DNA of 32,000 bases. It comes from Candidatus Saccharimonadota bacterium (GTDB lineage: Archaea > Nanohalarchaeota > Nanosalinia > Nanosalinales > Nanosalinaceae). Position 1 is the first letter of the stretch. The number at the start of each line of letters is the position of its first letter. Positions 2,275 to 25,127 of this stretch are shown piece by piece. The notes below the pieces were generated by a model. That model made no database searches, had not been told where the DNA came from, and saw only the letters and a program-made list of their open reading frames with translations. The position numbers and the translations under genes are program-made. Location: NCBI GenBank assembly GCA_001761425.1, contig CP012986.1:1020001-1052000 (forward strand). The letters are read 5' to 3'.

Positions 2275-2290
2275 CTCGTTTTTTGGATTT

Positions 2291-12385: not shown

Positions 12386-12639
12386 GTTCATCAAAGACTC
12401 TTCCAAAAGAGATTTTAACCCCGCATTCTTTCACAAACCTTAGTGCAGAAGCATCTTAAAACTTCTAGAGATTACTGAAAACTTCATTGACTTATTTGAT
12501 AGTTCACAGCTTCCTAAAATCTCTGGGAGACGAGAAGAAAGGAGATAGGTCTTGAAGACAGGACTTAGCATGATCAGTCAAGAGTTTTTGTGAAAATGTT
12601 TTTCAGAAGATGTAGACTTCTGGTTAGAAGGTGTAAGAT

Positions 12640-12679
12640 GTGAAAGATGAAGAAGAAAGGAAGAATGGAAGGCCTTTTT
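12640..12679 (-). terminator. Candidate 3'-end/terminator region of the 586-aa gene, mirror image of 12346-12385
   Basis: On the minus strand the gene ends with the identical 13-mer TAAAAAAAGGCCT (12670-12682), followed by TCCATTCTTCCTTTCTTCTTCATCTTTC. Confidence 0.4.
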
Positions 12680-14440
12680 TTACCATTCCCAGTAGAGGAT
12701 TGCTGCGGTGAGGATTAGGCCTGTGATGATTGCTAGTGCTGCTCTGATGACTGTGTTCTGTCCCTGGATCTGGTTGATCAGGCTGTTGGCTGTGTCTGTG
12801 AATGCTCCTGTGATTGCTCCTCCTGCTTCTTGTTCGTCGCTTTTCATTGCTTCTTCGATGTCTTCTCCTACGACGAGTTTGACTGTCTTGGATTGTTTGA
12901 CTTGTTCTCCTACTGCTGTTGCTGTGATTTCTACTTCTCCTCGTTTCTGGTATGGGATTCCTGCATAGATGTCTGCGTAGCCTGTTTCTCCTGGGTTGAC
13001 TGTGATTGTTCTTTCGTTGTCGTCGTTTTCTCTGTCTTTGATGTCGATCCAGGATGGTCCTTCGTAGCTGAGTTCGTAGGTATTTTGCTGTGTTCCTGTG
13101 TTCTGAAGTCTTACTTCGTAGACCTGGCTTCTGTTCTCTCCTGCGCTTGCTACTTCAGGGATGATGTTCATCTGCAGGTCATAGCAGTTCTCTACGTTGA
13201 ATGTTCCTGATACTGTGTCACTTGGTTCTCCGAAGGTGGAGGCTGTTGATGTGATCTGGTAGTTGACCTGTGAGGCCTCGTCTCCGGTGCTGTAGCTGAG
13301 GTTGAGTTGTTCTGATGCTCTTGGTCTGAGTGTTACTTCTTCCTGTGAAAGGTTTCCTCTTGTTGTCTGCAGCTCGAAGGTTTCCGTTGCTTCTCCAGTG
13401 TTTTCTACGTTTACTGGTGTTTCTGTTTCTGTGTTTTCACAAGTATTTACTTCCTGCTGTGGTACAGAGATCTCTGATTCCATTCCGTTGTAAACTGTTG
13501 CGGAAGCTGTTGCTGTCGTTGTTATTTCTGATTCTGCTGTGATCTGTACCTGTTGTTCGCCGAGTTCTTCCGGCGTGAACTCGAGTGAAGTAGTCGCTGA
13601 GGAGTCTGCAGGGATCTGGAGTGTTGTGTTCTGTAGCTGTCCCTGGCTTGTCTGGAGTACGAACTCGTCTGACCGTGTTCCTGTGTTCCTGACTGTAATG
13701 TCGTACTCTGCTGTTGCTCCTGAGGCTACTCTCTGGCTTTCAGGGTTGACCACTACTTCTGAGGAGTAGCAGGTCTCTGCCTGGAAGTTAACGCTCTTGA
13801 TGGACTGTGCGTAGCTTGTTGTTGAAGCTGTTACGACGTTGAACGATTCTTCTCTTTCCTGCTCTGAGGAGACGTAGAGTTCGACCGTCTGTGTCTCCTG
13901 ATCTTCAAGAGTTACCTCGTTCTGTGAGAACTCTCCGACTGGAGATGTAAGTTCGAACGTTTCCTTCTGAAGGCCTTCATTCGTCAGTTCTACCTGGTAG
14001 GTTGCTCTTTCGCCGAGGCAGACTGATCCTGGTTCCTGTACGTTCATGGAGACATCATGCTCCCGGATAACATTGACAAAGCCCTGAGCCGAGTAAGTAT
14101 TTCCGTTAGCTCTTGATTTGGCGTTTATGTCAAAACTGTATCTTCCTGCTTCTTTCTGACTGTCCGGGTTGTACCAGATGTTCACTACCTCAGATTCTCC
14201 TGGTTCAAGTTCCACCTGTCGAGGTGCGATATCGATAGAAGCTGTATCAGAAGAGGTCAGAGAATAAACATCTTCAACCGGCCCTGTATTTTCCACAGTG
14301 ACCTCATAAGACGTGAAAGAATCAATTCTTGTGCTGGACTCCTGAGGGAACAGGGTAACTTCCGCAGGACTGGCAGCAGTCAAAGTCACTGAAAGTGTTA
14401 GTAGAGTTGAAAGTATTACGAGTTTAGATGAGCTATTCAT
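12680..14440 (-). CDS. Secreted repeat protein with five CARDB/NEW3-like domains and a C-terminal TM anchor (S-layer/surface-array candidate)
   Basis: The signal peptide is KLVILSTLLTLSVTLTAASPA. Five repeats carry the motif YxVxVxNTG...xFxLxxxxG (YEVTVENTG, YQVELTNEG, YDITVRNTG, VNVENTG, YEVRLQNTG). The C-terminal TM is IRAALAIITGLILTAAILYW. A GGTGA Shine-Dalgarno-like motif lies at 14450-14454. Confidence 0.75.
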   Translation of the reverse strand: MNSSSKLVILSTLLTLSVTLTAASPAEVTLFPQESSTRIDSFTSYEVTVENTGPVEDVYSLTSSDTASIDIAPRQVELEPGESEVVNIWYNPDSQKEAGRYSFDINAKSRANGNTYSAQGFVNVIREHDVSMNVQEPGSVCLGERATYQVELTNEGLQKETFELTSPVGEFSQNEVTLEDQETQTVELYVSSEQEREESFNVVTASTTSYAQSIKSVNFQAETCYSSEVVVNPESQRVASGATAEYDITVRNTGTRSDEFVLQTSQGQLQNTTLQIPADSSATTSLEFTPEELGEQQVQITAESEITTTATASATVYNGMESEISVPQQEVNTCENTETETPVNVENTGEATETFELQTTRGNLSQEEVTLRPRASEQLNLSYSTGDEASQVNYQITSTASTFGEPSDTVSGTFNVENCYDLQMNIIPEVASAGENRSQVYEVRLQNTGTQQNTYELSYEGPSWIDIKDRENDDNERTITVNPGETGYADIYAGIPYQKRGEVEITATAVGEQVKQSKTVKLVVGEDIEEAMKSDEQEAGGAITGAFTDTANSLINQIQGQNTVIRAALAIITGLILTAAILYWEW

Positions 14441-14499
14441 GCTGAATTGTCACCATATAATAACACTCTAACCAAATCTTTTATATTAGTCGATAGTGA

Positions 14500-14578
14500 C
14501 AAAAGAAATCGACTTCCTTCCAGTGAAAAAAGGCCTTTCGTTATGAAGATAGGAAGATATGAGGAGAGAAAAGAAGGT
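14500..14578 (-). terminator. Candidate terminator/3' region of the giant gene
   Basis: The minus-strand sequence after the stop is CCTTCTTTTCTCTCCTCATATCTTCCTATCTTC...GAAAGGCCTTTTTTC. It shares the words CCTTCTTTTC and CCTCATATC with the 12346-12385 region and ends in a T6 run. Confidence 0.4.
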
Positions 14579-17500
14579 TTAGAAGGAAAAGAGGTTTTGA
14601 AGGCTGTTCATGACCCCCTGGAAGAATCCTTCATCGTTTCCATGCTGGGGGTCGGTGGTTCCGCCTGTGATGACATCGAGTTCCTCTCGGTATATTTCCG
14701 TTCCTCTTGAGTCCACCGAGATTGATGGAGTGTAGCTTCCTTCTTCCTGAGGTGTGAGGTAGAAGTAGACTGTCTTTCTCTCACCTTTGTCCAGGATTAT
14801 CTGCTTCTCGCTCTGTGATACCCAGGTCCTTGGGAGGCCTTCGAGCTGTAGATCGTATCTGGTCTGGTTCTCGTTTGTGTTATAAAGATTTACCTTGATG
14901 AGGCCTGATCCTGATTCTACTGATGCTATCTGGTTCGGGAAGCTTTCTGCTTCGACGTCCATCTCCAGTGTCTCTACTGTTGTGGAGGCTGAATTGCTTT
15001 CTCCGGATGTGAGTGCTGCTATCCTGTACTGGTGTATTCCTGGATCTCTTGCTTCCTGTTCAAAGCATACTCTTCCGTTTTCTGTCCTGGAGGTTACTAC
15101 TTCGCCGTTTCTTTCCAGGATTACCTCTGGCTCTATCTGTGATTCGACGCTGGCACATACGTGGAACTGCTGACCTTCAAAGGCACTTACTGGTGCTTCA
15201 AGGCCTGTGACTCTTGATGTAGGGATTACTCTGAGAGGCCTTGAGGCACTTACTTCTCCTGCTGTTGCTGTGACTGTGTGAGATCCAACATCTGTTGCCG
15301 TGATCCATGTCTGGTAGTAGCCGTCTGGCTGTGTCTGGACTGAGGCTTTTGTTTCTCCGCTTACGTCTATCTCGACTGTCGTTCTTCCTCTAGCTCCGTC
15401 CACAAATCCATTGACTTTCAGGGCATCTCCTTCTACTGCCATGTTTGGCTGTTTACTGTATGAGAGCTGCATCGAGATGTCTGTTGGTTCTCCTGTTGCT
15501 GTTGTCCCACAGCTTTCTACCTGTACTGTCTCTGTATTTGAGTCGGAGTACTGGTTGTTTGCCGTTACTGTGAACTCCTCTGTCCCCGAACCCTGGACGT
15601 TGGTGAACCTGATTGTTTTCTCAACTGTCTCTCTTTCTCCAAGACTGAAGTCTCTGAGTGAGTTGATGCTTCCGAGGCCTCTTCCTGTCAGTGTGACGAA
15701 TTCGTGGAATCCTGCGTTGTTGTCGATTGTTACCTCTGCTGTCATCGTCTCTCCTCTGCAGACTGAGCCTGGGCTGTCGATATCTGTTATCTGGAGGCCT
15801 TGCTGTGTCTCATCTTCTGTGAGTCTGAAGACCTCTACTGTGTCCTGGTCTCTGTTGATATTCACTGTTTCTGTCCAGCTACCGTATCCCTGTTTCTGGG
15901 CTGTTACGGAGTATGTTCCTGGTTCAAGGTCTATGGTCGCTCTCCCGTCGCTGTCAGTGTCTCTGGTGTATCCGTTGACCGAGATCTCTGCATTTTCAAG
16001 CCTTTCGCCATCTACGTCCTCTACAAGAGCTACTAAGGTTCCCCGGTCCGTATCTCCTCTATCCAGGTTTAGTGTAAGCGTTCTGTGTTCGCCGGATTCA
16101 AGGCCTATGTTTCTTGCTTCCGTCTGGTATCCTGATTTCGATACTGAGACTTCGTATTCTCCTTCGTCGAGTTCGAAGTAGGCCTGTCCTGTGCTGTCTG
16201 TGTATCTTGTGGTCTGCTGTGGCCCCTGTACTCTCACTCTTGCGTCTGATAGTCTTCTCCCTGTGTCTGATCTGGCGTTTACTTCAAGTGTTGCTTCCTG
16301 GCTTCCTCCTACGACTACCAGTTCTTCGTTTCTCTGGTAGGATCTTGATCCGCATGGACTTCCTTCTGTTGTGACTTCTGCCGTGATGATGCTGTCTTCT
16401 TCCGGGCTTAGCGATGATGTGAACGTTCTCTGGGAGTTGGCGTCGACTGTTCTTTCACGTGAGTCTACGACCTGTCCCTCTACCTTGAATCTTGCTGTTA
16501 CTCTCTGGGATTCTCCGTGGTTTGAGAGGCTGATCTCTCCTGTGGTGGTCTGTCCTCTGTCTATTACAGGGTCTCCAAATCTTAGTCTGCTTAGTGTGAG
16601 GGAGCAGTCGCCGGGATCATCTCTTACAGGTACTGTCCGTGTCCTGGAATCCGTGTTTCCGCTGGAGTCTTCCACGACCAACTGTACATCGTAGTCTCCG
16701 GTTGAACTGTAGCTGTGCTGTGCTGTTCTTCCGTATCCTGACTCTCCGTCTCCGAAGAACCATTCGTACTCGACGATGTCTCCATCATAGTCCTGACTGC
16801 CTGAGGCATCAAAAGTGATAGTATCGTCTGTCTCAGGCTGGGATGGACTCCAGGAGAATGATGCCTGAGGCCTTTGTCCTTCTTCATCTCCTACAACTGT
16901 CAGCTCATCGTTTCTATCATAGGTCCTGCTACCGCAGGGACTTCCTTCCGTGTTAACCTCGATTGTGATTATGCTGTCGACATCAGGGCTTACTGAATTA
17001 CTGAAGGTGCTCTGTGATCCTGCTGATACTTCTCTGTCGATTGTCCGTACTGTATTTCCTTCTATCTTGAACTTCACTTCGAAGTCCTGATCTTCTCCGT
17101 TGTTAGTCACTGTTACTGAGGCCTCTGTCGAATCTCCTCTTTCTATCACAGAATCCTCGAAGCTAAGGCTCCCTATGCTTATATCGCAGTCTCCAGAATC
17201 TGAGATAACCTCTACTTCTCTTGTCCTTGTATCTGTATTTCCGTTCGAGTCCCTGACTCTTAGTTGGACGTCATAGTCTCCTGTCGAGGTGAATCTGTGG
17301 CTTGTTCTACTTCCATAATCATAGGATGATCCATCGTCGAAGTCCCATCTGTACTGGTTTAAATCATCGTCCGGATCTGAACTTGAGGAACCATCAAACT
17401 CTGCGGATTCACCTTCAACTACAGGATGTCTGTCCCATGAGAACCGGGCTGTCGGATCGCTTTCTCCACCTCCGTCCGAACTCTGCCACTGAATAGCTCC

Positions 17501-19525
17501 TACAGGACCTATATAGGTCGTGTCATCATGGGAGAATATGGCCACGAGGCTGTATGTTTCGTCGAACTCCAGGTCATCGATAGGAGTTCCCGAATAGCTG
17601 AAGTCAAAGGATTCGGACTCTCCAGCATCAGGATAGACGTTGCCCCCTGTAAAGCCGATAAGATCGTTATAATGATCTTCGTAGAACTCGCAGTTCGGCA
17701 ATTCACTTGATTCCTTGATATAGATACCAAGGTTGCCTCCAACATCTCTGTCACCGCTGTTGTCAAGCCTTGCAGAAGATTCATAGTTCTCTCCTTCCTG
17801 AGGTACGCTCTCGAAGTTCTCAAGGCCTACATCAAGATCCGAGTCACTGAACGTCTGGCATGAAGGCCTTTGATCCGAATCCGCGAGGGAAAAGGCATCT
17901 TCCTCTGTTTCTGAAACTTCTGAGTTGAGCGCGTAATTGTTTAATCTTACTTCTAGATCGTGATCTCCTGTATTGAACTGGTCATCCAGTTCGTCCCAGG
18001 AAAAGGTGTTACTTACTGTTCTGGTCTCTCCGGAGTCAAAGTTGACGTCATTCTCTCCGCCATCTACTGGTTCTCCGTCTACGTAGAAATCTACCTGGAG
18101 GCCGTTGAACTGTTCATTGGAGTGGATCTCGGCTTCGAATTCTGTCTCTTCGCCTTCTGTTATGTATGTGTCTGTACTCTCGAGATTTCTGATCTCTATC
18201 TGCTGTTCGTCTTCGACTGTGAAAGTCGTTTTTTCCTCTCCTGTTATACTTCTTACATAGTTGAAGCACTGGAAGGTTACTGTGTGTTCTCCCTCGGAGA
18301 ATTCCTGGCTCTGAGTCCACCTGGCTTCACTGTTGTCTGGCTTGGACATTAATTCACTTGAATAGCGGCTTACAGAGTTTCCTTCCTCCCATTTACACCA
18401 TCCTGTGGAGGGATTGTCGTCAAGTTCAACGTATAGGTCTGCAGGACTACTGACATCTCCGGAAGGTCCGTAATCCGTTATACTGAACTGTTCATCACCT
18501 TCGGCAAGAAAAAAAGCGTCCTCCTCAGTCTGTGAGATCTCTGAATCCAGCTGGTAACTATTTAACCTGACCTCAAGATCGTGGTTCTGGCCTGTCGAGA
18601 GCGTTTGCGAAAGAGAATCCCAGTCCGAATCTACCGTTACAGTAGTGGTATCTCCTCCATTAAGACTGTATTCCTGGATAGAATCGATCTCTTCACTCCC
18701 TGAAGTGAATGTGACTTCGAGGTAGCTGACATCCTGGCTAGGTGTGATATCTGCTTTGAATTCAGTGGAGTCTTCTTCTCTTATATCCGAATCCGTGCTT
18801 CTTATGTTCGAGATATCTATGGAAAACTCCTCTGAGGCCTCTTCTACAGTTATTGTTTCTCTGGCGCTCAGTGTTTGTCCATCATCTGCCGTTACTGAGG
18901 CCTTTAGCTGGTAGGTCCCGCTGCTGTCCGGATTGAAGTTGCCGGTAACCTCGCATTCTTCTCCTGATGCTTCCCAACAGTATGTGCTGTCAACTTCCTG
19001 CCAGTCGCCCCATCCAAGTCCTCCGTAGTCTTTCCTCTCTTCTATAATGAATTCCTGGCCGTAAAGGTTTCCTGTGGTGTCTGTGGCCTCTGCTGTTATC
19101 GAGTGTGATTGTTCTTGGGTGAAGGATGATGGTATTGTCGTGAAGTCTACGTTTCTTTCCTCTTCTGTTTCCTGATTTACTGTTATCGTTGTGCTTTCTG
19201 TATGATAGCTGGACATCGATTCTGATCTTGATCTGACATAAATCGTTCTTTCTCCTGTTGTGTATGGTGTGAAAGTCCAGCTTGCGTCACAAGTGGTATA
19301 TCCTGTGCAGGAGTTGTATTCTTCGTATTCCATCCATGAGTTCCATTTTGCATCAACTCCGATTATCTGTTCATTGGATTCTGCGTTCACACTTATCTGT
19401 ACTGGTTCTCCTGATTCGATGTAGGAGTCGTTGACCTGGATACCTCCATCGAATTCTACTGTGGCTGAAGCGTTTGAAATCAGAAATGCTGTCAAAAATG
19501 CGGTCAGGATCAGTTTTCGTTTCAT
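14579..19525 (-). CDS. Giant (1648-aa) secreted modular surface protein: two PKD domains, CARDB-like modules, two CarboxypepD_reg-like domains, Ig-like C-terminal repeats
   Basis: The signal peptide is KLILTAFLTAFLISNASA. PKD signatures are FSWDRHP...YRWDFDDGS...TGDYDVQLRVRDSNGNT and FSWSPSQ...YEWFFGDGE...TGDYDVQLVVEDSSGNT. CarboxypepD_reg-like blocks are RVRVQG...TDSTGQAYFELDEGEYEVSVSKSGY and AEISVNG...DSDGRATIDLEPGTYSVTAQKQGY. No C-terminal TM is visible. Confidence 0.85.
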   Translation of the reverse strand: MKRKLILTAFLTAFLISNASATVEFDGGIQVNDSYIESGEPVQISVNAESNEQIIGVDAKWNSWMEYEEYNSCTGYTTCDASWTFTPYTTGERTIYVRSRSESMSSYHTESTTITVNQETEEERNVDFTTIPSSFTQEQSHSITAEATDTTGNLYGQEFIIEERKDYGGLGWGDWQEVDSTYCWEASGEECEVTGNFNPDSSGTYQLKASVTADDGQTLSARETITVEEASEEFSIDISNIRSTDSDIREEDSTEFKADITPSQDVSYLEVTFTSGSEEIDSIQEYSLNGGDTTTVTVDSDWDSLSQTLSTGQNHDLEVRLNSYQLDSEISQTEEDAFFLAEGDEQFSITDYGPSGDVSSPADLYVELDDNPSTGWCKWEEGNSVSRYSSELMSKPDNSEARWTQSQEFSEGEHTVTFQCFNYVRSITGEEKTTFTVEDEQQIEIRNLESTDTYITEGEETEFEAEIHSNEQFNGLQVDFYVDGEPVDGGENDVNFDSGETRTVSNTFSWDELDDQFNTGDHDLEVRLNNYALNSEVSETEEDAFSLADSDQRPSCQTFSDSDLDVGLENFESVPQEGENYESSARLDNSGDRDVGGNLGIYIKESSELPNCEFYEDHYNDLIGFTGGNVYPDAGESESFDFSYSGTPIDDLEFDETYSLVAIFSHDDTTYIGPVGAIQWQSSDGGGESDPTARFSWDRHPVVEGESAEFDGSSSSDPDDDLNQYRWDFDDGSSYDYGSRTSHRFTSTGDYDVQLRVRDSNGNTDTRTREVEVISDSGDCDISIGSLSFEDSVIERGDSTEASVTVTNNGEDQDFEVKFKIEGNTVRTIDREVSAGSQSTFSNSVSPDVDSIITIEVNTEGSPCGSRTYDRNDELTVVGDEEGQRPQASFSWSPSQPETDDTITFDASGSQDYDGDIVEYEWFFGDGESGYGRTAQHSYSSTGDYDVQLVVEDSSGNTDSRTRTVPVRDDPGDCSLTLSRLRFGDPVIDRGQTTTGEISLSNHGESQRVTARFKVEGQVVDSRERTVDANSQRTFTSSLSPEEDSIITAEVTTEGSPCGSRSYQRNEELVVVGGSQEATLEVNARSDTGRRLSDARVRVQGPQQTTRYTDSTGQAYFELDEGEYEVSVSKSGYQTEARNIGLESGEHRTLTLNLDRGDTDRGTLVALVEDVDGERLENAEISVNGYTRDTDSDGRATIDLEPGTYSVTAQKQGYGSWTETVNINRDQDTVEVFRLTEDETQQGLQITDIDSPGSVCRGETMTAEVTIDNNAGFHEFVTLTGRGLGSINSLRDFSLGERETVEKTIRFTNVQGSGTEEFTVTANNQYSDSNTETVQVESCGTTATGEPTDISMQLSYSKQPNMAVEGDALKVNGFVDGARGRTTVEIDVSGETKASVQTQPDGYYQTWITATDVGSHTVTATAGEVSASRPLRVIPTSRVTGLEAPVSAFEGQQFHVCASVESQIEPEVILERNGEVVTSRTENGRVCFEQEARDPGIHQYRIAALTSGESNSASTTVETLEMDVEAESFPNQIASVESGSGLIKVNLYNTNENQTRYDLQLEGLPRTWVSQSEKQIILDKGERKTVYFYLTPQEEGSYTPSISVDSRGTEIYREELDVITGGTTDPQHGNDEGFFQGVMNSLQNLFSF
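16280..17449 (-). repeat. Tandem duplication of a 195-aa (585-nt) PKD + two-Cys CARDB-like module inside the giant gene
   Basis: The module starts (ARFSW at 17449, ASFSW at 16864) are exactly 585 nt apart. Both modules contain GDC..., ...EGSPCGSR and end in ELxVVG. A second, older repeat pair (FSIDISNIRSTD... at ~18827 and IEIRNLESTD... at ~18199) lies upstream. Confidence 0.75.
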
Positions 19526-20085
19526 TATTCTAGACCTCCTTCCAGTAGATCGGGAACCTGTTCTTCATTTCGTGTCCCATATTTTTCAAATGTTTCAGCG
19601 ATACTATCATCGGTATTCTGCCATGAAGTTGACCTTATCTCAGGATCCTTCTCCTCCAGACTGGAGTAATCAACCTCCATTTCACCGTCCTCATTCTCAC
19701 TCATATAGTCATCTATTTCCTCCGCGAAGAAGTACTTGAAGGATGAATCAGTCTGGTTATCGGAAGGGTTATGGTCAAAGTATGCTCCAACAAGATCCCT
19801 TCCTTCACCGTCAAACATCTCCTCATACACTGCATCAGAAAAAATACTCATCTGATCAGCATCATTAAGTTCATCGTAGGCCTCCTCAAAACCAGCCCTG
19901 CCGACATAGAAAGGTCCAGGATCTTCTTCACCGCCTCCAGCACCGGCCGATCCTGAAGAACTATCTTCCGACAGTAGATCTGCTCCGCTTATAACTGTCG
20001 AACCGAGGCCTGTCGCTGCAGCTATCCCGCTGAGGCCTGCCACTTTTGCAAAATCTCTCCTTGTAATGTCTCCATCTATGTCCAT
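19525..20085 (-). CDS. Highly acidic hypothetical protein with twin-arginine (Tat) signal peptide
   Basis: The N-terminus is MDIDGDITRRDFAKVAGLSGIAAATGLGSTV. TRRDFAK is a near-consensus S/T-R-R-x-F-L-K motif. The stop TAA shares its last A with the ATG of the giant gene (TAATG), implying translational coupling. Confidence 0.7.
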   Translation of the reverse strand: MDIDGDITRRDFAKVAGLSGIAAATGLGSTVISGADLLSEDSSSGSAGAGGGEEDPGPFYVGRAGFEEAYDELNDADQMSIFSDAVYEEMFDGEGRDLVGAYFDHNPSDNQTDSSFKYFFAEEIDDYMSENEDGEMEVDYSSLEEKDPEIRSTSWQNTDDSIAETFEKYGTRNEEQVPDLLEGGLE

Positions 20086-20089
20086 TTTA

Positions 20090-20425
20090 TCACAGCCAGT
20101 CCGACTCTAGTATATATCCCCCGAGTTTTGAGATTGGACCATTCAGCTCTACATCATCCGGGTCATTGTCTATAACAGTAGCGTAAATATTGTTCGGATC
20201 AATTCCACTTATTTGATTAGCTATGTCCTGTTCATACTCAGCAATAGCCTGAGCAGTATCTCTACCCTGTTGAATTTCATCCTGCAATTGCTGGGTTCTA
20301 AACTGGATATAGTTCAATTCCTGTTGAGATACATTCGCTCTGTCCTCGAGATCGTTCAGTGCATCATCTACATCCTCCATTCCATCGAGGACATCAGCGA
20401 AGTTATCAGGACCTTGATAGTTCAT
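20090..20425 (-). CDS. Small acidic helical protein, shortest member of a three-gene paralogous family
   Basis: 111 aa. MNYQGPDNFADVLDGMEDVDDALNDLED aligns with MTSYQGRDFWADVKRGMEDLDDDLEDLAD (21390-21746) and YTDRNFWEDVQRGMEELDDGLDDLAG (20506-21267). The gap to the downstream Tat-signal gene is 4 nt. Confidence 0.65.
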   Translation of the reverse strand: MNYQGPDNFADVLDGMEDVDDALNDLEDRANVSQQELNYIQFRTQQLQDEIQQGRDTAQAIAEYEQDIANQISGIDPNNIYATVIDNDPDDVELNGPISKLGGYILESDWL

Positions 20426-20447
20426 GTTTACTTAATGGTGACAACAG

Positions 20448-20457
20448 ATTTAAATAT
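20448..20457 (-). promoter_or_regulatory. Candidate TATA box for the 20425 -> 14579 transcription unit
   Basis: The minus strand reads ATATTTAAAT, centred about 27 nt upstream of the ATG at 20425. No SD motif lies in between, which is consistent with a leaderless archaeal mRNA. Confidence 0.4.
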
Positions 20458-20505
20458 CTTACCAATACCACAGCGATCTTGGAATCAAGGTTATAGAATA
20501 CCAGA

Positions 20506-21267
20506 TTATCTGTTCTCAGCGTAGTTCTGGATGTCACTCATAGAATCCAGTTCGTCCTGTCTAAAACCAACGTCCTGAAGATCCTGAGCTGCCTGTTTAA
20601 CTTCCAGCCTCAGACCATCTAGATCTCCGTAGAGGTTGGACAGATCTTCTTCAACATCATCCAGGTAACCCATAATTGATTCTGCAGCTTCTCTGGCCTG
20701 ATCATAGCCTCCAACTTGATCGACAGCTCGTTCCATGACATCTACTGCCTGATCAAATTCACCGCTCCGTATGTAGCCCGCCAGATCGTCCAGACCGTCA
20801 TCAAGTTCTTCCATTCCTCTCTGGACATCCTCCCAGAAATTCCGATCTGTATACCGGGCCTGTTCGAACCCTTCAGAATTCATTCCTCTGGAACCATCGG
20901 ACATCACAGGCGCAGTGAGATCTCTGCCATCAAAAGGCGGATTTCCCTCGTCTGCTACAGGTCGGTCTTCGGGAATCCGTCCATCAGAAGTTGCTTCCGT
21001 GCTATCAGACTGTCCGTAGTTTGCTTCAGGTTCAATAACGTAGAAACCTTCCCCTCTAACTTTTATTTCATCCTCAGAAAACCTCTCTTCAGGATCTTCA
21101 TCTGTTCCTGCCAAATTAAGGCCCACGTAGTTCTTCCTGGTTAGGAGTTCTTCTGAGGACTGAAGGCCTCTGTATCTCTGAGTGCCTTCATCAAATACAA
21201 GTAAGGTTGTTTCTCTATCATCTTCCTCTAAAACTCCACCAACTTCTGTTACATGCCAGTCGTTCAT
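20506..21267 (-). CDS. Acidic hypothetical protein: unique N-terminal domain plus C-terminal helical domain of the paralogous family
   Basis: 253 aa. The C-terminal ~115 aa aligns with the 21390-21887 product and ends in the identical QAAQDLQDVGFRQDELDSMSDIQNY. Confidence 0.7.
   Translation of the reverse strand: MNDWHVTEVGGVLEEDDRETTLLVFDEGTQRYRGLQSSEELLTRKNYVGLNLAGTDEDPEERFSEDEIKVRGEGFYVIEPEANYGQSDSTEATSDGRIPEDRPVADEGNPPFDGRDLTAPVMSDGSRGMNSEGFEQARYTDRNFWEDVQRGMEELDDGLDDLAGYIRSGEFDQAVDVMERAVDQVGGYDQAREAAESIMGYLDDVEEDLSNLYGDLDGLRLEVKQAAQDLQDVGFRQDELDSMSDIQNYAENR
20520..20595 (-). repeat. 76-nt segment perfectly identical to 21404-21479 (3' coding end of two paralogues)
   Basis: Hand alignment finds CGTAGTTCTGGATGTCACTCATAGAATCCAGTTCGTCCTGTCTAAAACCAACGTCCTGAAGATCCTGAGCTGCCTG in both copies. 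Flanking coding DNA is clearly diverged. Confidence 0.9.
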
Positions 21268-21389
21268 TTAGATCCTTGTCGGTACTTTAGAACAATTTTT
21301 TATGTTTCGCTCGTTTGTTTGAACCAGATTTTGATTAAGAGGATTGCTAAATAACGCGGCGTAATAAAAGGTAAGGAAAAAGGGAGAGG

Positions 21390-21887
21390 TTATCTGTTTG
21401 CAACGTAGTTCTGGATGTCACTCATAGAATCCAGTTCGTCCTGTCTAAAACCAACGTCCTGAAGATCCTGAGCTGCCTGCTCCAGAGTCTGCTGGTGGAC
21501 TTCTAGATCGTCGTAAACTCCTTCGACATCATCCTGAACTGCGTCAAGATAGGTTGCTATTGATTCTGCCGTGTTTCTGGCTTCATCATATCCTCCTACC
21601 TGGTTGACTGCAGATACCATTGTGTCAACTGCGTCGTTGAAGTCTCCGTTCTCTACGTAGTCAGCTAGATCTTCTAGGTCGTCGTCTAGATCTTCCATTC
21701 CTCTCTTGACATCTGCCCAGAAGTCGCGTCCTTGGTAACTTGTCATTGTTGTATTTTCACCTCCACTAATTGTATCTGATGCTCTAGGTGGTTTTGAGCC
21801 TCTACTAACATGGCTGGCCTCTTCTCCGTAACTAGTCTCTCCATCCAATGGCGGGTGTCTCTTCGGGCCAGGAACATTATTACTCAA
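21390..21887 (-). CDS. Acidic helical protein of the paralogous family (start ambiguous: TTG at 21887 or ATG at 21746)
   Basis: The longest ORF starts at TTG 21887, with GGTGA 6 nt upstream (21894-21898). An internal ATG at 21746 is preceded by GGAGGTGA. It would give a 118-aa product (MTSYQGRDFW...) collinear with the 111-aa paralogue (MNYQGPDNF...). Confidence 0.65.
   Translation of the reverse strand: MSNNVPGPKRHPPLDGETSYGEEASHVSRGSKPPRASDTISGGENTTMTSYQGRDFWADVKRGMEDLDDDLEDLADYVENGDFNDAVDTMVSAVNQVGGYDEARNTAESIATYLDAVQDDVEGVYDDLEVHQQTLEQAAQDLQDVGFRQDELDSMSDIQNYVANR
21404..21479 (-). repeat. Second copy of the 76-nt identical segment
   Basis: See 20520-20595. Confidence 0.9.
21757..21764 (-). 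promoter_or_regulatory. Strong Shine-Dalgarno-like motif GGAGGTGA 10 nt upstream of the internal ATG at 21746
   Basis: The minus strand reads GGAGGTGAAAATACAACAATG. GGTGA motifs at similar spacing precede the starts at 14440, 24017 and 31049. Confidence 0.5.
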
Positions 21888-21926
21888 GTTTATTCACCGT
21901 GAGGTAATAAAAGATTGGTAACTTTT

Positions 21927-23147
21927 TTATAGGTTCTGATATCGATCCTGTAAAGTTTCAAGACCTATTTCTTCTGGAACTCCTCTCTCAAACTCTTCAC
22001 CCCTGCTAACCGCGTCAGCATAGCTCCAGAGATTTGCGGAAGTATCCTGTTCCGGTTCCTGGTTTATGTAGTCTATAATCGATCCCGGGGATAAGTTACC
22101 TTCGCAGAAAATCAGGTAGTTGCCGTTCTCTGTCTCATAGTCTTCCTGTAGAAGAGGTTCGATAATTTCATCCGGGTAATCGTTCAGCTTTCTGTCATAC
22201 GGATTGATCGCCAGAAAATCCCATCCTATCCACGTGTTTAACTCCTCATACTCTTTACCGTATTCATCTGTGAAGGCCTCAATGTGATCTTCTATCATAT
22301 TCTGTATAGCCGGATCTAGGTCATTCATATCTATGCCTTCCGCAGCCCCCTGTTCGAGAGCTAATTTTGCTTTACCTTCAGTAGATGTGCTGTCAAGAAG
22401 ACTTAGGTTCGCCCTATCCGTATCAGGATCACCGTATCTCTTCATACCGTTAACAGGAGTATCTTTGGCAGCGATAGTCCTCAGATCAAATTCGTGAGGT
22501 ATCGCATACTGAGCCAGATATCCTTGAGGTATACCGTCTTCTCTCCAGTCCTCCACCATTCCATCGACGCCATCAGGATAGAAGTATATATCACTTCCAC
22601 CGCTGGAGCTTCGAGGTTTCATGACAAGAGGAACATCTCCGATAATATCCTCCTGAACCTCCTCTATCACTTTCTCAACATCATCGTACTTCTGAAGATA
22701 ATGATCTACCGGCTGATAACCTGGTACGGTGCCAGGATCATCCCAGAAAGCCCAGTTCTGCTCGGCCTTATCACCCAGAAAACTGGGGATAGGAGCAGGA
22801 TTAATCATCTGAACACTTTCAGATAAGGCCTCAAAATCCTCAGAAGAAATATTTCTCCTGAAAGCAGCTGTCGGAAGAAAAGTTAGCTCACCCAGGCCTT
22901 CACTATCCAGTTCAGCGTTCATATCGGAGAGATCTTCGCCTCCCAGTTTAACCTCTTCCGATACATCAATATCCTCCTGTTTAAGGCCTATTCTGTTCAG
23001 CAGACCGTTATCTCTAAGAAATGTCTTCCTGTGGTTGGTCTTGGCACTGGCACTGTTCTGTGCGGATGCCCATGCAGTAGGCGCGTCAAAATCATCGTAA
23101 AGGCCTTCTCTGAAGTTAATTCTATCCACCTGTGAAACTAAAGTCAC
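21927..23147 (-). CDS. Divergent ATP-grasp fold enzyme (peptide/amide ligase-like)
   Basis: 406 aa with a GTG start. ATP-grasp landmarks appear in the correct order: PLVMKPRSSSGGSDIYFY (Gly-rich loop), YLAQYAIPHEFDLRTIAAKD...GMKRYG, and WIGWDFLAIN...NYLIFCEGNLSPG (the xVDxx...xLExNxxPG equivalent, with a ~27-aa insertion). Confidence 0.55.
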   Translation of the reverse strand: MTLVSQVDRINFREGLYDDFDAPTAWASAQNSASAKTNHRKTFLRDNGLLNRIGLKQEDIDVSEEVKLGGEDLSDMNAELDSEGLGELTFLPTAAFRRNISSEDFEALSESVQMINPAPIPSFLGDKAEQNWAFWDDPGTVPGYQPVDHYLQKYDDVEKVIEEVQEDIIGDVPLVMKPRSSSGGSDIYFYPDGVDGMVEDWREDGIPQGYLAQYAIPHEFDLRTIAAKDTPVNGMKRYGDPDTDRANLSLLDSTSTEGKAKLALEQGAAEGIDMNDLDPAIQNMIEDHIEAFTDEYGKEYEELNTWIGWDFLAINPYDRKLNDYPDEIIEPLLQEDYETENGNYLIFCEGNLSPGSIIDYINQEPEQDTSANLWSYADAVSRGEEFERGVPEEIGLETLQDRYQNL

Positions 23148-23189
23148 GTTTTCGTCGATTCCAAGAAGAAAAGATAGGAAAGGAGGAGC

Positions 23190-24017
23190 TTAGAGATCGC
23201 TCCTCTCGAGATCCTGGAAGTAACCGAAGACTTCTTCTTCAAGTTCTCCTTCGTCGTGGAGATCTTCCATGTAGGAGCTGAAGTCGTCGGATGCTCCGAT
23301 CTCGTCCATGTCAAGCCATCTGCCGTTAGGCCTTTCATCGGAGACTCCGTACTCTCCGAGTCTGAACTCGTCGTCTTCAAAGTCTGTTCCTTCAAGAACA
23401 TCCATGACCTGGGCCTCGTAATCGCTGGTGTTCTCAATAACTTCTTCGTAACCAACGCCTTCGAGCTGACTGTCTAGGGCCGTGACTGAGTAACCCATGA
23501 ATGCATCTCTGACACCATCACTTTCGTCAAGCAGGCCTTCAGAGAGGCCTTCATAGGCAAATTCCGAAGCTTCAGTCTGTGTCTCTGTCTGAGTATCTGT
23601 TTCAGTCGGAGACTCTGTCTCTGTAGGCGTTTCTGTATCTACAGGAGTCTTGGTTTCAGTAGGGGTCTCAGTGGAGTTATCTACCGGAGTCTGTTCTCCG
23701 CTTTCTTCCTTCGTGATCGGAGATCTCAACCTGTACGGGATCGCATCGCCGACAGCACCCCAAGCCTCGCCAGCCTGACCCGCGGCCGCCGATCCTACTC
23801 CTGCTGCGTAGTCAACGGAATCCAGATCTCCGTCTTCAGCGAAGTCCACAAAACCTCCAGCGGCGGCAACGCCCGCTGCCTGAAGGAAGTTTCTTCTTTC
23901 AGGGTCGAAGTTTCTGTTGTTGTCATTACGAATTATATCATAGGATTTTTCTGCGGCAGACCTAACGTCTCCCGGAAGTTCTGTAAACGCTTCTTTAGCC
24001 TCATCAGCCCAGCTCAT
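23190..24017 (-). CDS. Highly acidic hypothetical protein with internal Tat-like RRNFLQAAG motif and Thr/Glu/Pro-rich linker
   Basis: 275 aa. ERRNFLQAAGVAAAGGF lies at residues ~39-55. The linker is TETPTETKTPVDTETPTETESPTETDTQTETQTE (DNA ~23568-23695). GGTGA lies 9 nt upstream of the ATG (24027-24031). Confidence 0.65.
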   Translation of the reverse strand: MSWADEAKEAFTELPGDVRSAAEKSYDIIRNDNNRNFDPERRNFLQAAGVAAAGGFVDFAEDGDLDSVDYAAGVGSAAAGQAGEAWGAVGDAIPYRLRSPITKEESGEQTPVDNSTETPTETKTPVDTETPTETESPTETDTQTETQTEASEFAYEGLSEGLLDESDGVRDAFMGYSVTALDSQLEGVGYEEVIENTSDYEAQVMDVLEGTDFEDDEFRLGEYGVSDERPNGRWLDMDEIGASDDFSSYMEDLHDEGELEEEVFGYFQDLERSDL

Positions 24018-24110: not shown

Positions 24111-25127
24111 TTATTTTGAAACTCTGATATCCAGACAGACTCTTTTCACTGAAGGGCCTCTATCGCCTGTAACCGTTTTCTCGACGATTTTAAATTCAAG
24201 GCCTTTTCTTTCAGCCTCTTCACGTATTTCGTCCCGTATTTTCTTCCAGTTCTCGTTCTCCAGGAACCTGTAATAATTTATTACTCCTTTATCTTCTGCC
24301 AGTTCCATTGCGAGGCCTAGAAACTTGTCCGCTGAACCTGGTAGAGGCATAACGATTCGATCAAATTTTTCCGAATACTCTATGTTTTTTACATCTCCGC
24401 AGTAGGCCTTGACTTTATCTTCAATCTTGTTTCTCTTGATGTTTTCCTTCAGGTATTCGCAGGCCTCTGGGTTTTTCTCGACTGAGATTATTTTTTCCGG
24501 CTCGGCGTTTTTCGCTGCCATAACTGCGAAAGGCCCTACACCGGCGAACATGACGAGGACTTTCTCGCCTTCCTCTATCTTTGAGACTATCCTGTTTCTT
24601 TCAGTGGAAAATCTTTCCGAGAAATAGGCCTCTGTCGGGTCAACTTTTAGTTCTGTGCCGAACTCTCTGTGAACTGTCTCGGTTTTTTCGCCGTAAAGCT
24701 TCTGGTAGTCTCCGACCCTGAATTCTCCTTTGAGGCCTCCCTGTTTCAGGAGGATAGTCTCAATATTGGGATGGTGTTCGAGGATTCCTTCTATCGCTTT
24801 CTCTCTTTCAACTGTCAGCTCGCTGATTACTGCGATATCGCCGATGATCTCGTAGGAAGGTAGTTCGTAGTCTTTCTCCCTCTCTTCATATATAATAGAG
24901 ATGTCCATGTTCTCCTTCAGATCTGAGAGGCCTTCATCGACGAAGACAATACCTCCATGATCTTTTTCCAGGACTTCTTTTTCAGAGTACTCTTTGGAAG
25001 AGTAGGCTTCCAGTATTTTTTCTTCTCCGTTCTTTGAGGCCTTGAGCCGTTTTCCTTCTTCCTTTATTTCAAAGCCCTGTTCTCTGAAGGTTTCCTTTAC
25101 TCTTTCCTCGAGTTTTTCCTGTTCCAT
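24111..25127 (-). CDS. trm5: tRNA (guanine37-N1)-methyltransferase Trm5/Taw22 family (Met-10+ like)
   Basis: 338 aa. The SAM-binding block is VLVMFAGVGPFAVMAAKN, followed by EKNPEACEYLKENIKRNKI and IVMPLPGSA, typical of archaeal Trm5. Confidence 0.8.
   Translation of the reverse strand: MEQEKLEERVKETFREQGFEIKEEGKRLKASKNGEEKILEAYSSKEYSEKEVLEKDHGGIVFVDEGLSDLKENMDISIIYEEREKDYELPSYEIIGDIAVISELTVEREKAIEGILEHHPNIETILLKQGGLKGEFRVGDYQKLYGEKTETVHREFGTELKVDPTEAYFSERFSTERNRIVSKIEEGEKVLVMFAGVGPFAVMAAKNAEPEKIISVEKNPEACEYLKENIKRNKIEDKVKAYCGDVKNIEYSEKFDRIVMPLPGSADKFLGLAMELAEDKGVINYYRFLENENWKKIRDEIREEAERKGLEFKIVEKTVTGDRGPSVKRVCLDIRVSK

Follow-up and report, generated by a model that had tools for sequence, protein, structure and literature searches.

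A gene chain in Candidatus Nanopetramus SG9 that may combine a conserved envelope module with a lineage-specific ATP-grasp ligase

Gene organization of the locus

The window analyzed here, a 32,000-nucleotide stretch of the genome of the halophilic Ca. Nanopetramus SG9 (Nanohaloarchaeota), contains eight ORFs lying on the minus strand between trm5 and a 334-nt spacer (Table 1). An earlier note, made from the sequence, had described this co-directional chain in a symbiont-type archaeon with a small genome. The organism agrees with that description, and our ORF calls reproduced the coordinates, lengths and gaps exactly. The 111-aa, 186-aa and giant genes form a tightly coupled trio headed by the 111-aa gene.

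Table 1. Features of the gene chain and its surroundings; gaps are those to the next gene of the chain.
Feature	Position	Strand	Remarks
trm5	24111-25127		Upstream of 275-aa gene; Pfam TRM5-TYW2, 1e-50
275-aa gene	23190-24017	-	ORF; gap 42 nt
RR motif and Gly/Ala-rich hydrophobic segment, 275-aa protein	23847-23906		
Tandem DNA repeat in 275-aa gene	23571-23633		
ATP-grasp gene (406 aa)	21927-23147	-	ORF, GTG start; gap 39 nt
ExNxxPG Mg-binding motif	22080-22103		EGNLSPGS
165-aa gene	21390-21887	-	ORF, TTG start; gap 122 nt
N-terminal peptide, 165-aa protein	21747-21887		
253-aa gene	20506-21267	-	ORF; gap 80 nt
111-aa gene	20090-20425	-	ORF; gap 4 nt
186-aa gene	19525-20085	-	ORF; 1-nt TAATG overlap with giant gene
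RR motif and Gly/Ala-rich hydrophobic segment, 186-aa protein	19987-20073		
Giant gene (1648 aa)	14579-19525	-	ORF; gap 138 nt
Signal peptide, giant	19460-19525		Sec-type
Amphipathic tail, giant	14582-14629		16 aa
Giant/586-aa intergenic region	14441-14578	-	Oligo-T runs after giant stop; TAATATAAAA (TATA-like) and GGTGA before 586-aa gene
586-aa gene	12680-14440	-	ORF
C-terminal TM helix, 586-aa protein	12686-12754		
Spacer	12346-12679		334 nt
Canonical RimK/CofF/MptN-like gene	29532-30593		Also within the window
Proposed module A	21390-23147		Perhaps to 24017
Proposed module B	12680-20425		

Promoter-like elements, read directly from the DNA sequence, were located ahead of at least five of the eight genes. 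The 80-nt gap does contain the TATA box reported earlier (TATTTAAA, about 28 nt upstream of the 111-aa gene), another TATA-like element lies about 30 nt upstream of the 253-aa gene, and both a terminator and a promoter specific to the 586-aa gene are probable in the giant/586-aa intergenic region. Together, the TATA-like and GGTGA elements point to multiple transcription units instead of a single operon. In Ca. Nanohalococcus SVXNc the genes next to trm5 reach 5,000-6,000 RPKM, compared with 2,695 RPKM for the thermosome and 3,458 RPKM for an annotated S-layer protein (PMC10266531 Table S1); with genes matched by their position relative to trm5, these values are possible support for the expression of an envelope module.

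The giant and the anchored protein

The giant starts with a Sec-type signal peptide and duplicated N-terminal modules. Its domains comprise two PKD plus CARDB-like units, two CarboxypepD_reg domains and C-terminal Ig-like domains (Pfam PKD_4, 1.5e-34; CarboxypepD_reg, 1.3e-18). A hydropathy scan identified no TM helix, and the protein ends in a conserved amphipathic tail. The 586-aa protein has a signal peptide, a flexible linker of about 40 aa and a TM helix at about residues 563-585; its AF2 model (pLDDT 84.8) contains five tandem Ig-like beta-sandwich domains. Foldseek matched this model to tandem ASH/HYDIN-type and MG-type Ig arrays, all generic, with no S-layer-specific match. The five domains and the helix had been described correctly; the likeness claimed between the domains and the giant C-terminus is weak (E = 0.003).

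Homologues of the 586-aa protein number at least 198, those named belonging to Nanohaloarchaeota; the 120 matches listed span 559-602 aa, with identities of 44-53% for the distant ones. Judging from these matches, we regard the gene as part of the phylum core, and its uniform length and conservation argue for a core envelope role rather than for host attachment. Giant orthologues of 896-1560 aa, all with an aromatic amphipathic tail end, occurred in the six of six nanohaloarchaeal loci that reach this position, and they are the faster-diverging of the pair, with 33-55% identity across loci where the 586-aa protein has 46-66%. The succession pointed out before in SG9, from a giant that lacks an anchor to an Ig protein that has one, is conserved phylum-wide.

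The small RR proteins

Both acidic proteins carry the RR motifs attributed to them. In the 186-aa protein TRRDFAK (residues 8-14) is accompanied by a Gly/Ala-rich hydrophobic segment (hydropathy of residues 15-33, 1.41), and the protein scores 15.3 with TIGR01409, under the cut-off of 16.7. The 275-aa protein shows an N-terminal stretch of 40 aa, then ERRNFLQ (residues 40-46), a Gly/Ala-rich hydrophobic segment, a Thr/Glu/Pro-rich repeat linker and an acidic C-domain; it scores 17.2 bits with TIGR01409 (cut-off 16.7) and 19.2 with Pfam TAT_signal (cut-off 22.7). The two proteins have no detectable kinship in SG9 (E = 3.1). Tat export, as the earlier note had it, is unlikely because tatC is not among the SG9 genes in a published KEGG table (PMC9765267 Table S4); moreover, in other lineages 120-200 residues precede the RR segment, a placement consistent with a TM anchor. 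In our reading a signal anchor would fix the 186-aa protein in the membrane, with its acidic domain facing outward; the 275-aa protein is probably an envelope protein, either bitopic or signal-anchored.

The giant/586-aa pair has an RR protein tightly upstream, with the RR plus Gly/Ala-rich design of the 186-aa protein, in L002, L004, L011, L012, L016 and L017. The close coupling of the giant to such a protein, through the TAATG overlap in SG9, holds across the phylum. In L011 the protein directly upstream of the giant (275 aa) has an N-terminal helical domain and, after it, an internal RR segment, and in L017 a 242-aa protein with the same layout lies one gene further upstream. Orthologues of the SG9 275-aa protein were found in L012 (60%) and L004 (54%); L011 has a faintly similar protein at the equivalent position (E = 0.016), and L002 has none.

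The ATP-grasp enzyme, its probable partner and the helical paralogues

The 406-aa protein itself matched nothing in Pfam or NCBIfam. Its family profile (A2), compared with the PDB, matched RimK (2.3e-7 and 2e-6), ArgX/LysX (1e-5 to 9e-5) and cyanophycin synthase (1e-4), and Pfam RimK was matched by four remote family members (best 1.5e-6). Residues K127, G184, R223, R237, D310, E349, N351 and G355 are invariant in the family alignment, and the leading Foldseek matches of the model, a poor one (pLDDT 51), were all ATP-grasp enzymes. The profile matches to RimK structures (2e-7) and the ExNxxPG motif uphold the ATP-grasp call of the earlier note. On these profiles we assign the protein as a genuine, hitherto unannotated ATP-grasp enzyme, a predicted amidoligase of a new subfamily in the RimK/LysX clade. 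The family is rare (22 matches in 5.8e9 proteins and 27 in 1.8e9 representatives/clusters) and was found in some nanohaloarchaea and a few haloarchaea.

In every nanohaloarchaeal ATP-grasp locus the gene of the 165-aa protein directly follows that of the enzyme. Its conserved N-terminal peptide, VPGPKRHPPLDG..YGEE..SKPPRASDTISGGE, is fused to an acidic helical domain; across nanohaloarchaea the peptide stays conserved, but different lineages combine it with different helical domains. We favor the TTG start over the NCBI call of 118 aa because a GGTGA motif is placed 8 nt upstream and all orthologues keep the N-peptide. The protein is likely a substrate or partner of the enzyme. The 253-aa protein is a clear paralogue (53% identity over 155 aa, E = 2e-43); it has one more domain at its N-terminus and keeps the N-peptide in degenerate form (NPPFDGRD, alignment A3). 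The acidic, helical 111-aa protein resembles the 165-aa protein weakly (E = 0.011 pairwise, 4e-6 in a small set) and is assigned by this similarity as distantly paralogous to the helical domain of the 165- and 253-aa proteins. Helical paralogy within a lineage also occurs elsewhere (L017_371 and L017_242, 1e-7; L011_203 and L011_275, 0.04). The WXG-sized adaptor proposed before did not survive as a WXG100 member, since Pfam scores were under threshold and PDB profile matches were generic coiled coils only.

In four of the five haloarchaeal loci (L001, L006, L008 and L009) the order is ATP-grasp, small ORF, AstE_AspA, with an additional faint RimB-like match in L009; no AstE/AspA or RimB-like gene was found among the neighbors in nanohaloarchaeal ATP-grasp loci. 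A small ORF with conserved motifs follows the ligase in four of five haloarchaeal and all nanohaloarchaeal loci; behind a remote ATP-grasp gene, the small protein contains an EPITGGEE motif. An HMM built from the haloarchaeal small proteins ranked the L002 orthologue first, at E = 0.84 only, and the putative tie between these ORFs and the nanohaloarchaeal N-peptide draws on position and short motifs. CofE adjoins the ATP-grasp gene in Halanaeroarchaeum, a neighbor not kept in the other haloarchaeal loci.

Distribution of the chain

Two close relatives, L004 and L012, repeat the full gene order, and the remote L011 repeats its outline. Linkage of the giant, the 586-aa and the RR genes is kept across the phylum, but the ATP-grasp gene and its partner are separable: hmmsearch identified no ATP-grasp gene in the distant nanohaloarchaea L016 and L017, where the partner is also missing and the giant/586-aa pair is kept, and haloarchaeal loci have the enzyme and the small ORF without the giant. 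Collinearity extends phylum-wide over about 25 kb that contain trm5, diphthine synthase, pelota and HtrA. Since these housekeeping neighbors are equally collinear, synteny alone proves little for a dedicated system, and the adjacency of the proposed modules A and B could be a historical accident. An EF-1alpha gene is inserted between them in B1-Br10_U2g21.

A proposed composite locus and its alternatives

Our tentative reading, held at slightly less than even probability, is that the chain is a composite of a conserved envelope module and a lineage-specific ligase that have a helical domain family in common. Module B, the conserved core, would consist of a Sec-secreted multi-Ig giant without TM helix that ends in the short amphipathic tail, the 586-aa protein as a membrane-anchored stalk of five Ig domains and, before the giant, one or more small acidic bitopic proteins with the RR and Gly/Ala-rich segment as signal anchor. 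The cytoplasmic side of the RR unit would be the separate 111-aa protein in SG9 and the fused helical N-domain in other lineages. The module persists across Nanohaloarchaeota, as does most of its 25-kb neighborhood, which encodes membrane proteins and lipoproteins. Its most likely product is a constitutive envelope structure, and the small anchored proteins may be assembly or tethering factors co-produced with the giant. In module A the ligase would probably attach one or more amino acids, with glutamate the likeliest, to the carboxylate of a Glu in the partner N-peptide (...DTI-x-GGE), with the haloarchaeal AstE/AspA-type hydrolase and the faint RimB-like match as plausible erasers. Since the nanohaloarchaeal peptide is fused to a helical domain akin to that found alongside the giant, the ligase may modulate a coiled-coil component of module B on its cytoplasmic side.

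It is somewhat unlikely that the giant and the 586-aa protein are a host-recognition adhesin complex at cell-cell contacts rather than a general envelope or S-layer structure. In its favor, the PKD, CARDB and CarboxypepD_reg domains are those of a typical adhesin, giants range from 896 to 1648 aa and diverge more quickly than the 586-aa protein, very fast evolution marks the small proteins beside them, and PKD-bearing DPANN surface proteins have been proposed as host-binding factors (PMC10266531). Yet all nanohaloarchaeal lineages examined have the pair regardless of host, at a fixed place inside a conserved block, and the 586-aa protein combines good conservation with a uniform length. We consider decidedly unlikely the proposal of the earlier note, one surface-assembly or host-contact system of all eight genes in which Tat-exported acidic and WXG-like proteins chaperone a giant fibre docked on the 586-aa anchor. 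Such a system would suit the short gaps, the co-orientation, the coupled trio, the repeated gene order and the helical paralogy joining the ATP-grasp partner to a giant-coupled protein. Counting against it are the separate occurrence of the ATP-grasp gene and its partner, missing where the rest is kept and present in giant-less haloarchaea, and also the equal synteny of housekeeping genes, the list without tatC (PMC9765267 Table S4), the failed WXG100 matches, the multiple promoter-like elements and the EF-1alpha insertion.

For the enzyme, an unlikely alternative is a small-molecule ligase making an N-acyl-dipeptide or a cofactor glutamyl tail, as RIMKLA/B, CofF or MptN do, with AstE/AspA as the matching hydrolase. 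The small ORF would then be unrelated to the chemistry, leaving the enzyme without a tie to the surface genes. The RimK clade includes cofactor and metabolite ligases, AstE/AspA enzymes hydrolyze N-acyl-Asp/Glu small molecules, CofE is a neighbor in Halanaeroarchaeum and a canonical RimK/CofF/MptN-like gene lies in the same window; however, the CofE neighbor is not conserved, the small ORF with its motifs accompanies the ligase almost throughout, and the N-peptide persists despite the swapping of the rest of the partner. Most improbable is a graspetide (microviridin-type) macrocyclase with the N-terminal peptide of the 165-aa protein as RiPP precursor. PsnB and MdnB appear among the Foldseek matches, the peptide gene adjoins that of the enzyme and SKPPRASDTISGGE offers cross-linkable Ser/Thr/Lys and Asp/Glu residues, but the Foldseek query was the poor model, the profiles match RimK, LysX and cyanophycin synthase and not graspetide cyclases, the peptide is fused to a folded 120-aa helical domain, and neither a protease nor an exporter is encoded nearby.

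Returning to the composite reading, an identity of 45-50% across the phylum is high for an S-layer protein, which counts against a literal S-layer, as does the S-layer annotation of other proteins in cultured nanohaloarchaea (PMC10266531). The closest analogy for module B, as suggested by its genes, would still be the S-layer canopy and stalk of SlaA/SlaB, and the reaction proposed for the module A pair is modeled on RimK and RpsF, LysX and LysW, and the tubulin glutamylases.

Gene organization of the locus

The map of open reading frames agreed to the base with the chain of eight minus-strand genes claimed in the earlier note, which are called here by the length of their products (275, 406, 165, 253, 111, 186, 1648 and 586 aa, the 1648-aa protein being the giant). 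The chain is flanked by trm5 (TRM5-TYW2 in Pfam, 1e-50) and by an intergenic spacer, and lies in the closed 1.12-Mb genome of Nanohaloarchaea archaeon SG9, also named Ca. Nanopetramus SG9 (PMC6642349). Along it the genes are separated by 42, 39, 122, 80 and 4 nt, a 1-nt overlap (TAATG) and 138 nt, and all eight products are strongly acidic, with pI values of about 4.05 and 16-26% Asp plus Glu. Because the organism is archaeal, a sigma-70 promoter scanner was set aside and the intergenic elements were read straight from the sequence. TATA-like boxes were located 25-45 nt upstream of the 275, 165, 253, 111 and 586-aa genes, often accompanied by GGTGA 8-9 nt upstream, and T-runs follow the stop codons of the 165-aa gene and of the giant. 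Tight coupling is confined to the trio formed by the 111-aa gene, the 186-aa gene and the giant. Rfam and tRNA scans of the locus gave no match. A mobile-element or viral origin of the ATP-grasp block was considered, and nothing was found in its favour.

Coordinates of the features discussed, in the window
Feature	Position	Strand	Remarks
Eight-gene chain	12680-24017	-	
trm5	24111-25127		
Intergenic spacer	12346-12679		334 nt
Giant C-terminal tail	14582-14629	-	Also in the L002, L004, L011, L016 and L017 giants
30-nt tandem DNA repeat in the 275-aa gene	23571-23633		Encodes a Thr/Glu/Pro-rich stretch (TETPTETKTPVDTETPTETESPTETDTQTETQTE)
DUF63 gene and three consecutive lipobox proteins	8738-9448 and 9520-12345	- and +	
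Two phylum-conserved proteins with no family match	4664-8743	+	451 aa and 907 aa
Second, more canonical RimK-family ATP-grasp gene	29532-30593	+	353 aa

The 406-aa protein and its family

The assignment of the 406-aa protein to the ATP-grasp enzymes proved right, based on the match of its family profile to solved RimK and on its catalytic residues. Alone, the protein had no match at E <= 0.1 in Pfam or NCBIfam, and the cut-offs of the RimK models (PF08443/TIGR00768) were unmet. Its relatives are few: 22 were found among 5.8 billion clusters, only 27 family members came up when 1.84 billion representatives were searched exhaustively with a profile, and scans with the ATP-grasp alignment located five loci in genome contigs and four in metagenome contigs. 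Identity to the SG9 protein is 67-85% in Nanohalobium-like MAGs and 40-45% in haloarchaea (Halanaeroarchaeum sulfurireducens, Halodesulfurarchaeum and others). In an alignment of 23 diverse members, remote representatives included, residues K127, G184, R223, R237, D310, E349, N351 and G355 are invariant and P354 is nearly so; the sequence EGNLSPGS of the SG9 protein corresponds to the ExNxxPG Mg motif of ATP-grasp enzymes. Compared with solved structures, the profile of these 23 sequences matched RimK (2.3e-7, 4.9e-7 and 2e-6), ArgX/LysX (1.4e-5 and 9e-5), cyanophycin synthase (1e-4) and also biotin carboxylases, and only four remote members, at best with 1.5e-6, matched the Pfam RimK model (PF08443) directly. 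An AF2 model of the ligase from 20 sequences was poor (pLDDT 51); with it, 49 of the 50 best Foldseek matches were ATP-grasp enzymes, but with E of about 0.01 and TM of about 0.2. From these sequence comparisons the 406-aa protein is best described as a member of a new sister subfamily of RimK/LysX and not as a RimK equivalog, and its family is an unannotated ATP-grasp lineage that has no Pfam or NCBIfam model.

The second RimK-family gene of the window is located about 4.4 kb beyond trm5 and about 6.4 kb from the 406-aa gene. Its product scored 9e-11 with Pfam RimK, 6e-12 with NCBIfam rimK_fam, 1e-11 with CofF and 2e-10 with MptN, all under the equivalog cut-offs, and was matched weakly by the 406-aa family profile (9e-5 in a set of 10 sequences).

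Genes adjoining the ligase

In four of the five haloarchaeal ligase loci (L001, from Halanaeroarchaeum CP008874, L006, L008 and L009) the ligase gene is followed by a small ORF of 86-123 aa and then by a gene for an AstE/AspA-family hydrolase, a faint RimB-like match being present in L009; the fifth locus, L007, is without the small ORF. Such a small Pro-rich ORF is easily missed in GC-rich DNA. No giant surface protein was found near the ligase in any of the five. That nanohaloarchaea share this ligase family with a few haloarchaea, the group that supplies their known hosts, suggests horizontal transfer between them.

The haloarchaeal small ORFs have in common the motif FGPxVTPPHxPxPL and, near the C-terminus, (R/Q)TSxF(I/L)xGE. 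At all the nanohaloarchaeal loci the protein encoded after the ligase starts with VPGP(K/R)xH(P/S)PL..YGEE..SKxxRxxDTIxGG(E/D). This N-peptide is kept while the helical domain differs, one type being present in SG9 and another in the loci of B1-Br10_U2g21 (L002) and of two close relatives (L004 and L012). For the SG9 partner, the GGTGA placed 8 nt before a TTG start favours the 165-aa reading over the 118-aa call of NCBI. A remote ligase (29% identity, locus L018) is followed by a protein containing EPITGGEE. When an HMM of the haloarchaeal small ORFs was run against all nanohaloarchaeal ORFs, the L002 orthologue ranked first, at an E value of only 0.84; the putative link between these ORFs and the N-peptide is thus one of position and short motifs, not shown by statistics.

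In the reactions of RimK and LysX/ArgX, an amino acid is joined to the Glu carboxylate of a small acidic protein. Since these closest solved relatives tag small acidic proteins, amino-acid tagging is the likeliest activity of the ligase. By analogy, the enzyme would most likely add one or more amino acids to the conserved acidic motif of its partner, and the AstE/AspA and RimB-like hydrolases may be the erasers of the tag in haloarchaea. RimB is a protease associated with RimK that trims the RimK product (PMC7343187, PMC11957791).

Helical paralogues

The 253-aa and 165-aa proteins are 53% identical (2e-43), and the 111-aa protein is a distant paralogue of the latter (E values of 0.011 and 4e-6). 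Each lineage has a paralogous set of its own, as in the pairs (named by locus and length) L004_145/179, L017_371/242 (1e-7), L019_152/170 (2e-7) and L011_203/275 (0.04). No BLAST orthologues of the 111-aa and 186-aa proteins were found, even in relatives with an approximately 80% identical ligase. Helical paralogy within lineages is the one line of evidence tying the ligase partner to the giant-coupled proteins. Searches of Pfam, NCBIfam and PHROGs with the six small and medium proteins gave nothing above threshold save TIGR01409 in the 275-aa protein, and family scans of their positional equivalents in other lineages were likewise empty.

The 111-aa helical protein had been called WXG-sized, and the small helical proteins do resemble type VII substrates: they are acidic, about 100 aa in length and grouped in paralogous sets. 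Against Pfam WXG100 (PF06013, cut-off 27.3) the 165-aa protein reached 20.8 bits (E = 5e-4) and the 253-aa protein 13.8 bits, both under the gathering threshold, and they carry no W-x-G motif. No Esx proteins were among 60 PDB profile matches of the helical family, which were generic coiled coils only, and the locus contains no FtsK/EccC-type ATPase.

RR proteins and Tat export

Directly upstream of every giant, a gene that overlaps it or lies within about 11 nt encodes a small acidic protein in which R-R (K-R in L002) precedes a Gly/Ala-rich hydrophobic stretch. For the SG9 proteins of 186 and 275 aa, which show no similarity to each other, Tat export had been proposed. The segments are indeed like haloarchaeal Tat signals, where S/T-R-R-x-F-L-K-like motifs are followed by Gly/Ala-rich, modestly hydrophobic segments; in contrast to these signals, L002 has KR and in several lineages the segment is internal. 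It is preceded by a long helical domain in L002_309 (near residue 196), L011_275 (near 134) and L017_242 (near 122), encoded upstream of the ATP-grasp gene, directly upstream of the giant and one gene further upstream, respectively. Such a position fits a TM anchor and not an N-terminal Tat signal. L011_275, from a remote locus, has the design expected from a fusion of the SG9 111-aa and 186-aa genes, on the basis of architecture and position and not of sequence similarity.

The Tat models gave borderline results: the 275-aa protein, with RR at 41-42, scored above the cut-off in TIGR01409 (17.2 against 16.7) and below it in Pfam (19.2 against 22.7), and the 186-aa protein scored below it in TIGR01409 (15.3 against 16.7). 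As for tatA/tatC, the presence of which the earlier note had wanted confirmed, a KEGG table of 20 nanohaloarchaeal genomes has no K03118 (TatC) entry for SG9 or B1-Br10_U2g21 and one for LC1Nh (PMC9765267 Table S4), and the TatC that stands alone in SVXNc was judged 'likely inactive' (PMC10266531). Because of the internal RR segments, the borderline models and the lack of a listed TatC, Tat export of the acidic proteins is considered unlikely and the RR proteins are read as signal-anchored bitopic proteins. Wherever Tat-like motifs appear in nanohaloarchaeal genomes, a translocase should be looked for before Tat export is inferred.

The Thr/Glu/Pro-rich stretch of the 275-aa protein is similar to the glycosylated linkers found in S-layer glycoproteins of haloarchaea. 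This protein also matched NCBIfam surf_glcprot_Halo weakly (E = 0.001).

The giant and the 586-aa protein

The 586-aa protein has at least 198 homologues, and every named one belongs to Nanohaloarchaeota; the 120 listed are 559-602 aa long, with 44-53% identity in the distant ones. In its AF2 model, which is confident (pLDDT 84.8), a signal peptide precedes five beta-sandwich domains, and a linker of about 40 residues leads from these to a TM helix at the C-terminus. With this model Foldseek matched only generic tandem arrays of Ig domains, such as those of HYDIN/ASH, the MG domains of alpha-2-macroglobulin and titin; none was specific to S-layers, a neutral result for an S-layer role.

The giant carries a Sec signal, two PKD domains (1.5e-34) and two CarboxypepD_reg domains (1.3e-18); a weak CARDB-like match (E = 0.008) comes after one of the PKD domains, and the stretch with the PKD domain occurs in duplicate. 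No TM helix was found in it by hydropathy and domain scan. Its orthologues range from 896 to 1560 aa, and every one ends, past the last Ig domain, in an aromatic/basic amphipathic tail of 12-16 residues (e.g. ...GFFQGVMNSLQNLFSF, ...GLISKIRAFLSF, ...TFLDRLLSLFRL). This tail may serve as a docking peptide or anchor the giant in the plane of the membrane; no other part of the giant could keep it on the surface of the cell. The pairing of a large anchorless secreted protein with an adjacent, smaller protein bearing a C-terminal TM helix is kept in six nanohaloarchaeal lineages.

In Ca. Nanohalococcus SVXNc, genes beside trm5 reached 5,086 and 6,058 RPKM as compared with 2,695 for the thermosome (PMC10266531 Table S1). 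SVXNc_1027-1030, which adjoin trm5 and may correspond to window genes, span 156-6,058 RPKM, with two over 5,000, and the authors treated SVXNc_1003-1031 as one large archaella-like operon (PMC10266531). These values are a possible lead, and the sole one, on the high abundance expected of an S-layer. No mention of the giant/586-aa pair and its RR companions was found in the papers examined.

Synteny and wider neighbourhood

Two distant loci without ligase, L016 (CP046106) and L017 (GCA_022729235), show the order diphthine synthase, trm5, two or three acidic proteins, giant and 576-aa protein, continued by three lipoproteins, DUF63/AliA-AliB, a polytopic protein of about 900 aa, one of about 380 aa and pelota. 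Gene for gene, this is the order of the window from 3.8 to 25.9 kb, and L016 runs on into HtrA as the window does at 2.7-3.8 kb. The conserved linkage on which the earlier note had staked its reading was therefore found in relatives; it is uninformative, since the housekeeping flanks are conserved equally well.

In B1-Br10_U2g21 (L002/L005) an EF-1alpha gene (11516-12898) separates the ligase-partner pair from the giant block, and three unrelated genes, two of them for proteins with RR segments, occupy the place of the 275-aa gene. The N-termini of the three lipobox proteins of the window end in LVSSGC, IVASGC and LIASGC. Their arrangement with DUF63, a family now named AliA/AliB and involved in archaeal lipoprotein lipidation (PMC12462473), is kept in L016 and L017, and points to an envelope-biogenesis neighbourhood extending well past the eight-gene chain. 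The 451-aa protein of the window has a single hydrophobic (TM-like) segment near residue 75 and is 43-45% identical to its L016/L017 counterparts; the 907-aa protein is polytopic, with at least six hydrophobic segments and 28-35% identity.

A proposed composite locus

The locus looks like a composite of a phylum-wide envelope module and a lineage-specific RimK-like ligase with its partner. The former looks to consist of one or more RR-anchored acidic proteins, the giant and the five-Ig stalk, and the bridge between both modules is the shared fast-evolving helical domain only. The earlier interpretation was thus partly supported: the gene chain and the ATP-grasp enzyme stand, and Tat export and a WXG-like nature of the small proteins are not supported. 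Its reading of the eight genes as one host-contact system has their co-orientation and the helical paralogy on its side; the envelope genes occur without the ligase in L016 and L017, the ligase occurs without a giant in haloarchaea, nothing observed points specifically to host contact, and we consider this reading unlikely. Rather improbable is also a phylum-wide, undescribed envelope apparatus in which sets of fast-evolving cytoplasmic coiled coils, free or RR-tethered, would be coupled across the membrane to the giant and the stalk and be switched by the ligase in some lineages. There, by adding amino acids to one of the coiled-coil subunits, the RimK-like ligase would act as a switch for assembly or host contact, and post-translational tagging would control an archaeal surface structure.

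Under the preferred composite reading, two things are new: a RimK-like subfamily that lacked annotation and has a cognate partner, and a pair of core envelope genes not described before. If the ligase tags proteins, it would be an archaeal addition to the short list of protein amino-acid ligases of the RimK, LysX and TTLL types. Few surface genes are retained in all nanohaloarchaea, and the giant/586-aa pair and its RR companions belong to them; because of this retention across the phylum and their absence from the papers examined, they are good first candidates for the nanohaloarchaeal cell-envelope scaffold and should be more rewarding than lineage-specific adhesins as targets of cryo-ET and proteomics.

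Comparison with known systems

By sequence, the closest system to the ligase is RimK-RpsF(-RimB), with a family profile match of 2e-7, the K, R and D...ExNxxPG residues, a small acidic protein encoded beside the ligase and, in one haloarchaeal locus, the faint RimB-like match. However, the 406-aa protein is longer at the N-terminus by about 120 residues, its Mg ligands are spaced 39 residues apart, its partner is not ribosomal protein S6 nor the adjoining gene rpsF, the candidate target motif is internal in the nanohaloarchaeal partner, and the activity is predicted from sequence. In LysX/ArgX-LysW, a RimK-clade ATP-grasp enzyme acts on the Glu carboxylate of an adjacent small acidic protein and a hydrolase frees the product, which recalls the arrangement in haloarchaea, where the ligase gene is followed by those for the small protein and the hydrolase; the ArgX/LysX structures were matched at 1e-5 to 9e-5. 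Yet the ligase is not accompanied by a LysW-like zinc finger or by genes for a kinase, a reductase or an aminotransferase, and the haloarchaeal hydrolase is of the AstE/AspA type whereas the LysX system uses the M20 hydrolase LysK. A graspetide (microviridin-type) RiPP is very unlikely, as the ligase profile matches RimK, LysX and CphA and not MdnB or PsnB, and the candidate peptide, in place of being a short leader-core precursor, is joined to a domain of 120 aa.

Concerning the envelope genes, four SPEARE genes are located at other places in the SG9 genome (PMC6642349). SPEARE and giant VirB4-linked proteins are also large Ig-rich surface proteins of nanohaloarchaea. Whereas SPEARE proteins exceed 3000 aa and bear a TM anchor and a cytoplasmic VirB4/helicase-like domain, the giant is much shorter, is encoded at another locus, lacks TM helix, protease and ATPase domains and contains only PKD, CarboxypepD_reg and Ig-like domains.

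The pair was also compared with the two-component SlaA/SlaB S-layer of Sulfolobales, in which a large anchorless secreted protein is likewise followed by a smaller protein of beta-sandwich type that a TM helix anchors at its C-terminus; as in that system, the anchor (586 aa) is better conserved than the large protein. The PDB profile search for S-layer homology gave nothing below E = 0.09, and no sequence or specific fold similarity to SlaA/SlaB was found. In contrast to SlaA/SlaB, the 586-aa stalk has no coiled coil, and the giant is coupled to additional acidic proteins with RR anchors. In the architecture predicted from its genes, the putative envelope module is similar to an S-layer of canopy and stalk such as SlaA/SlaB.
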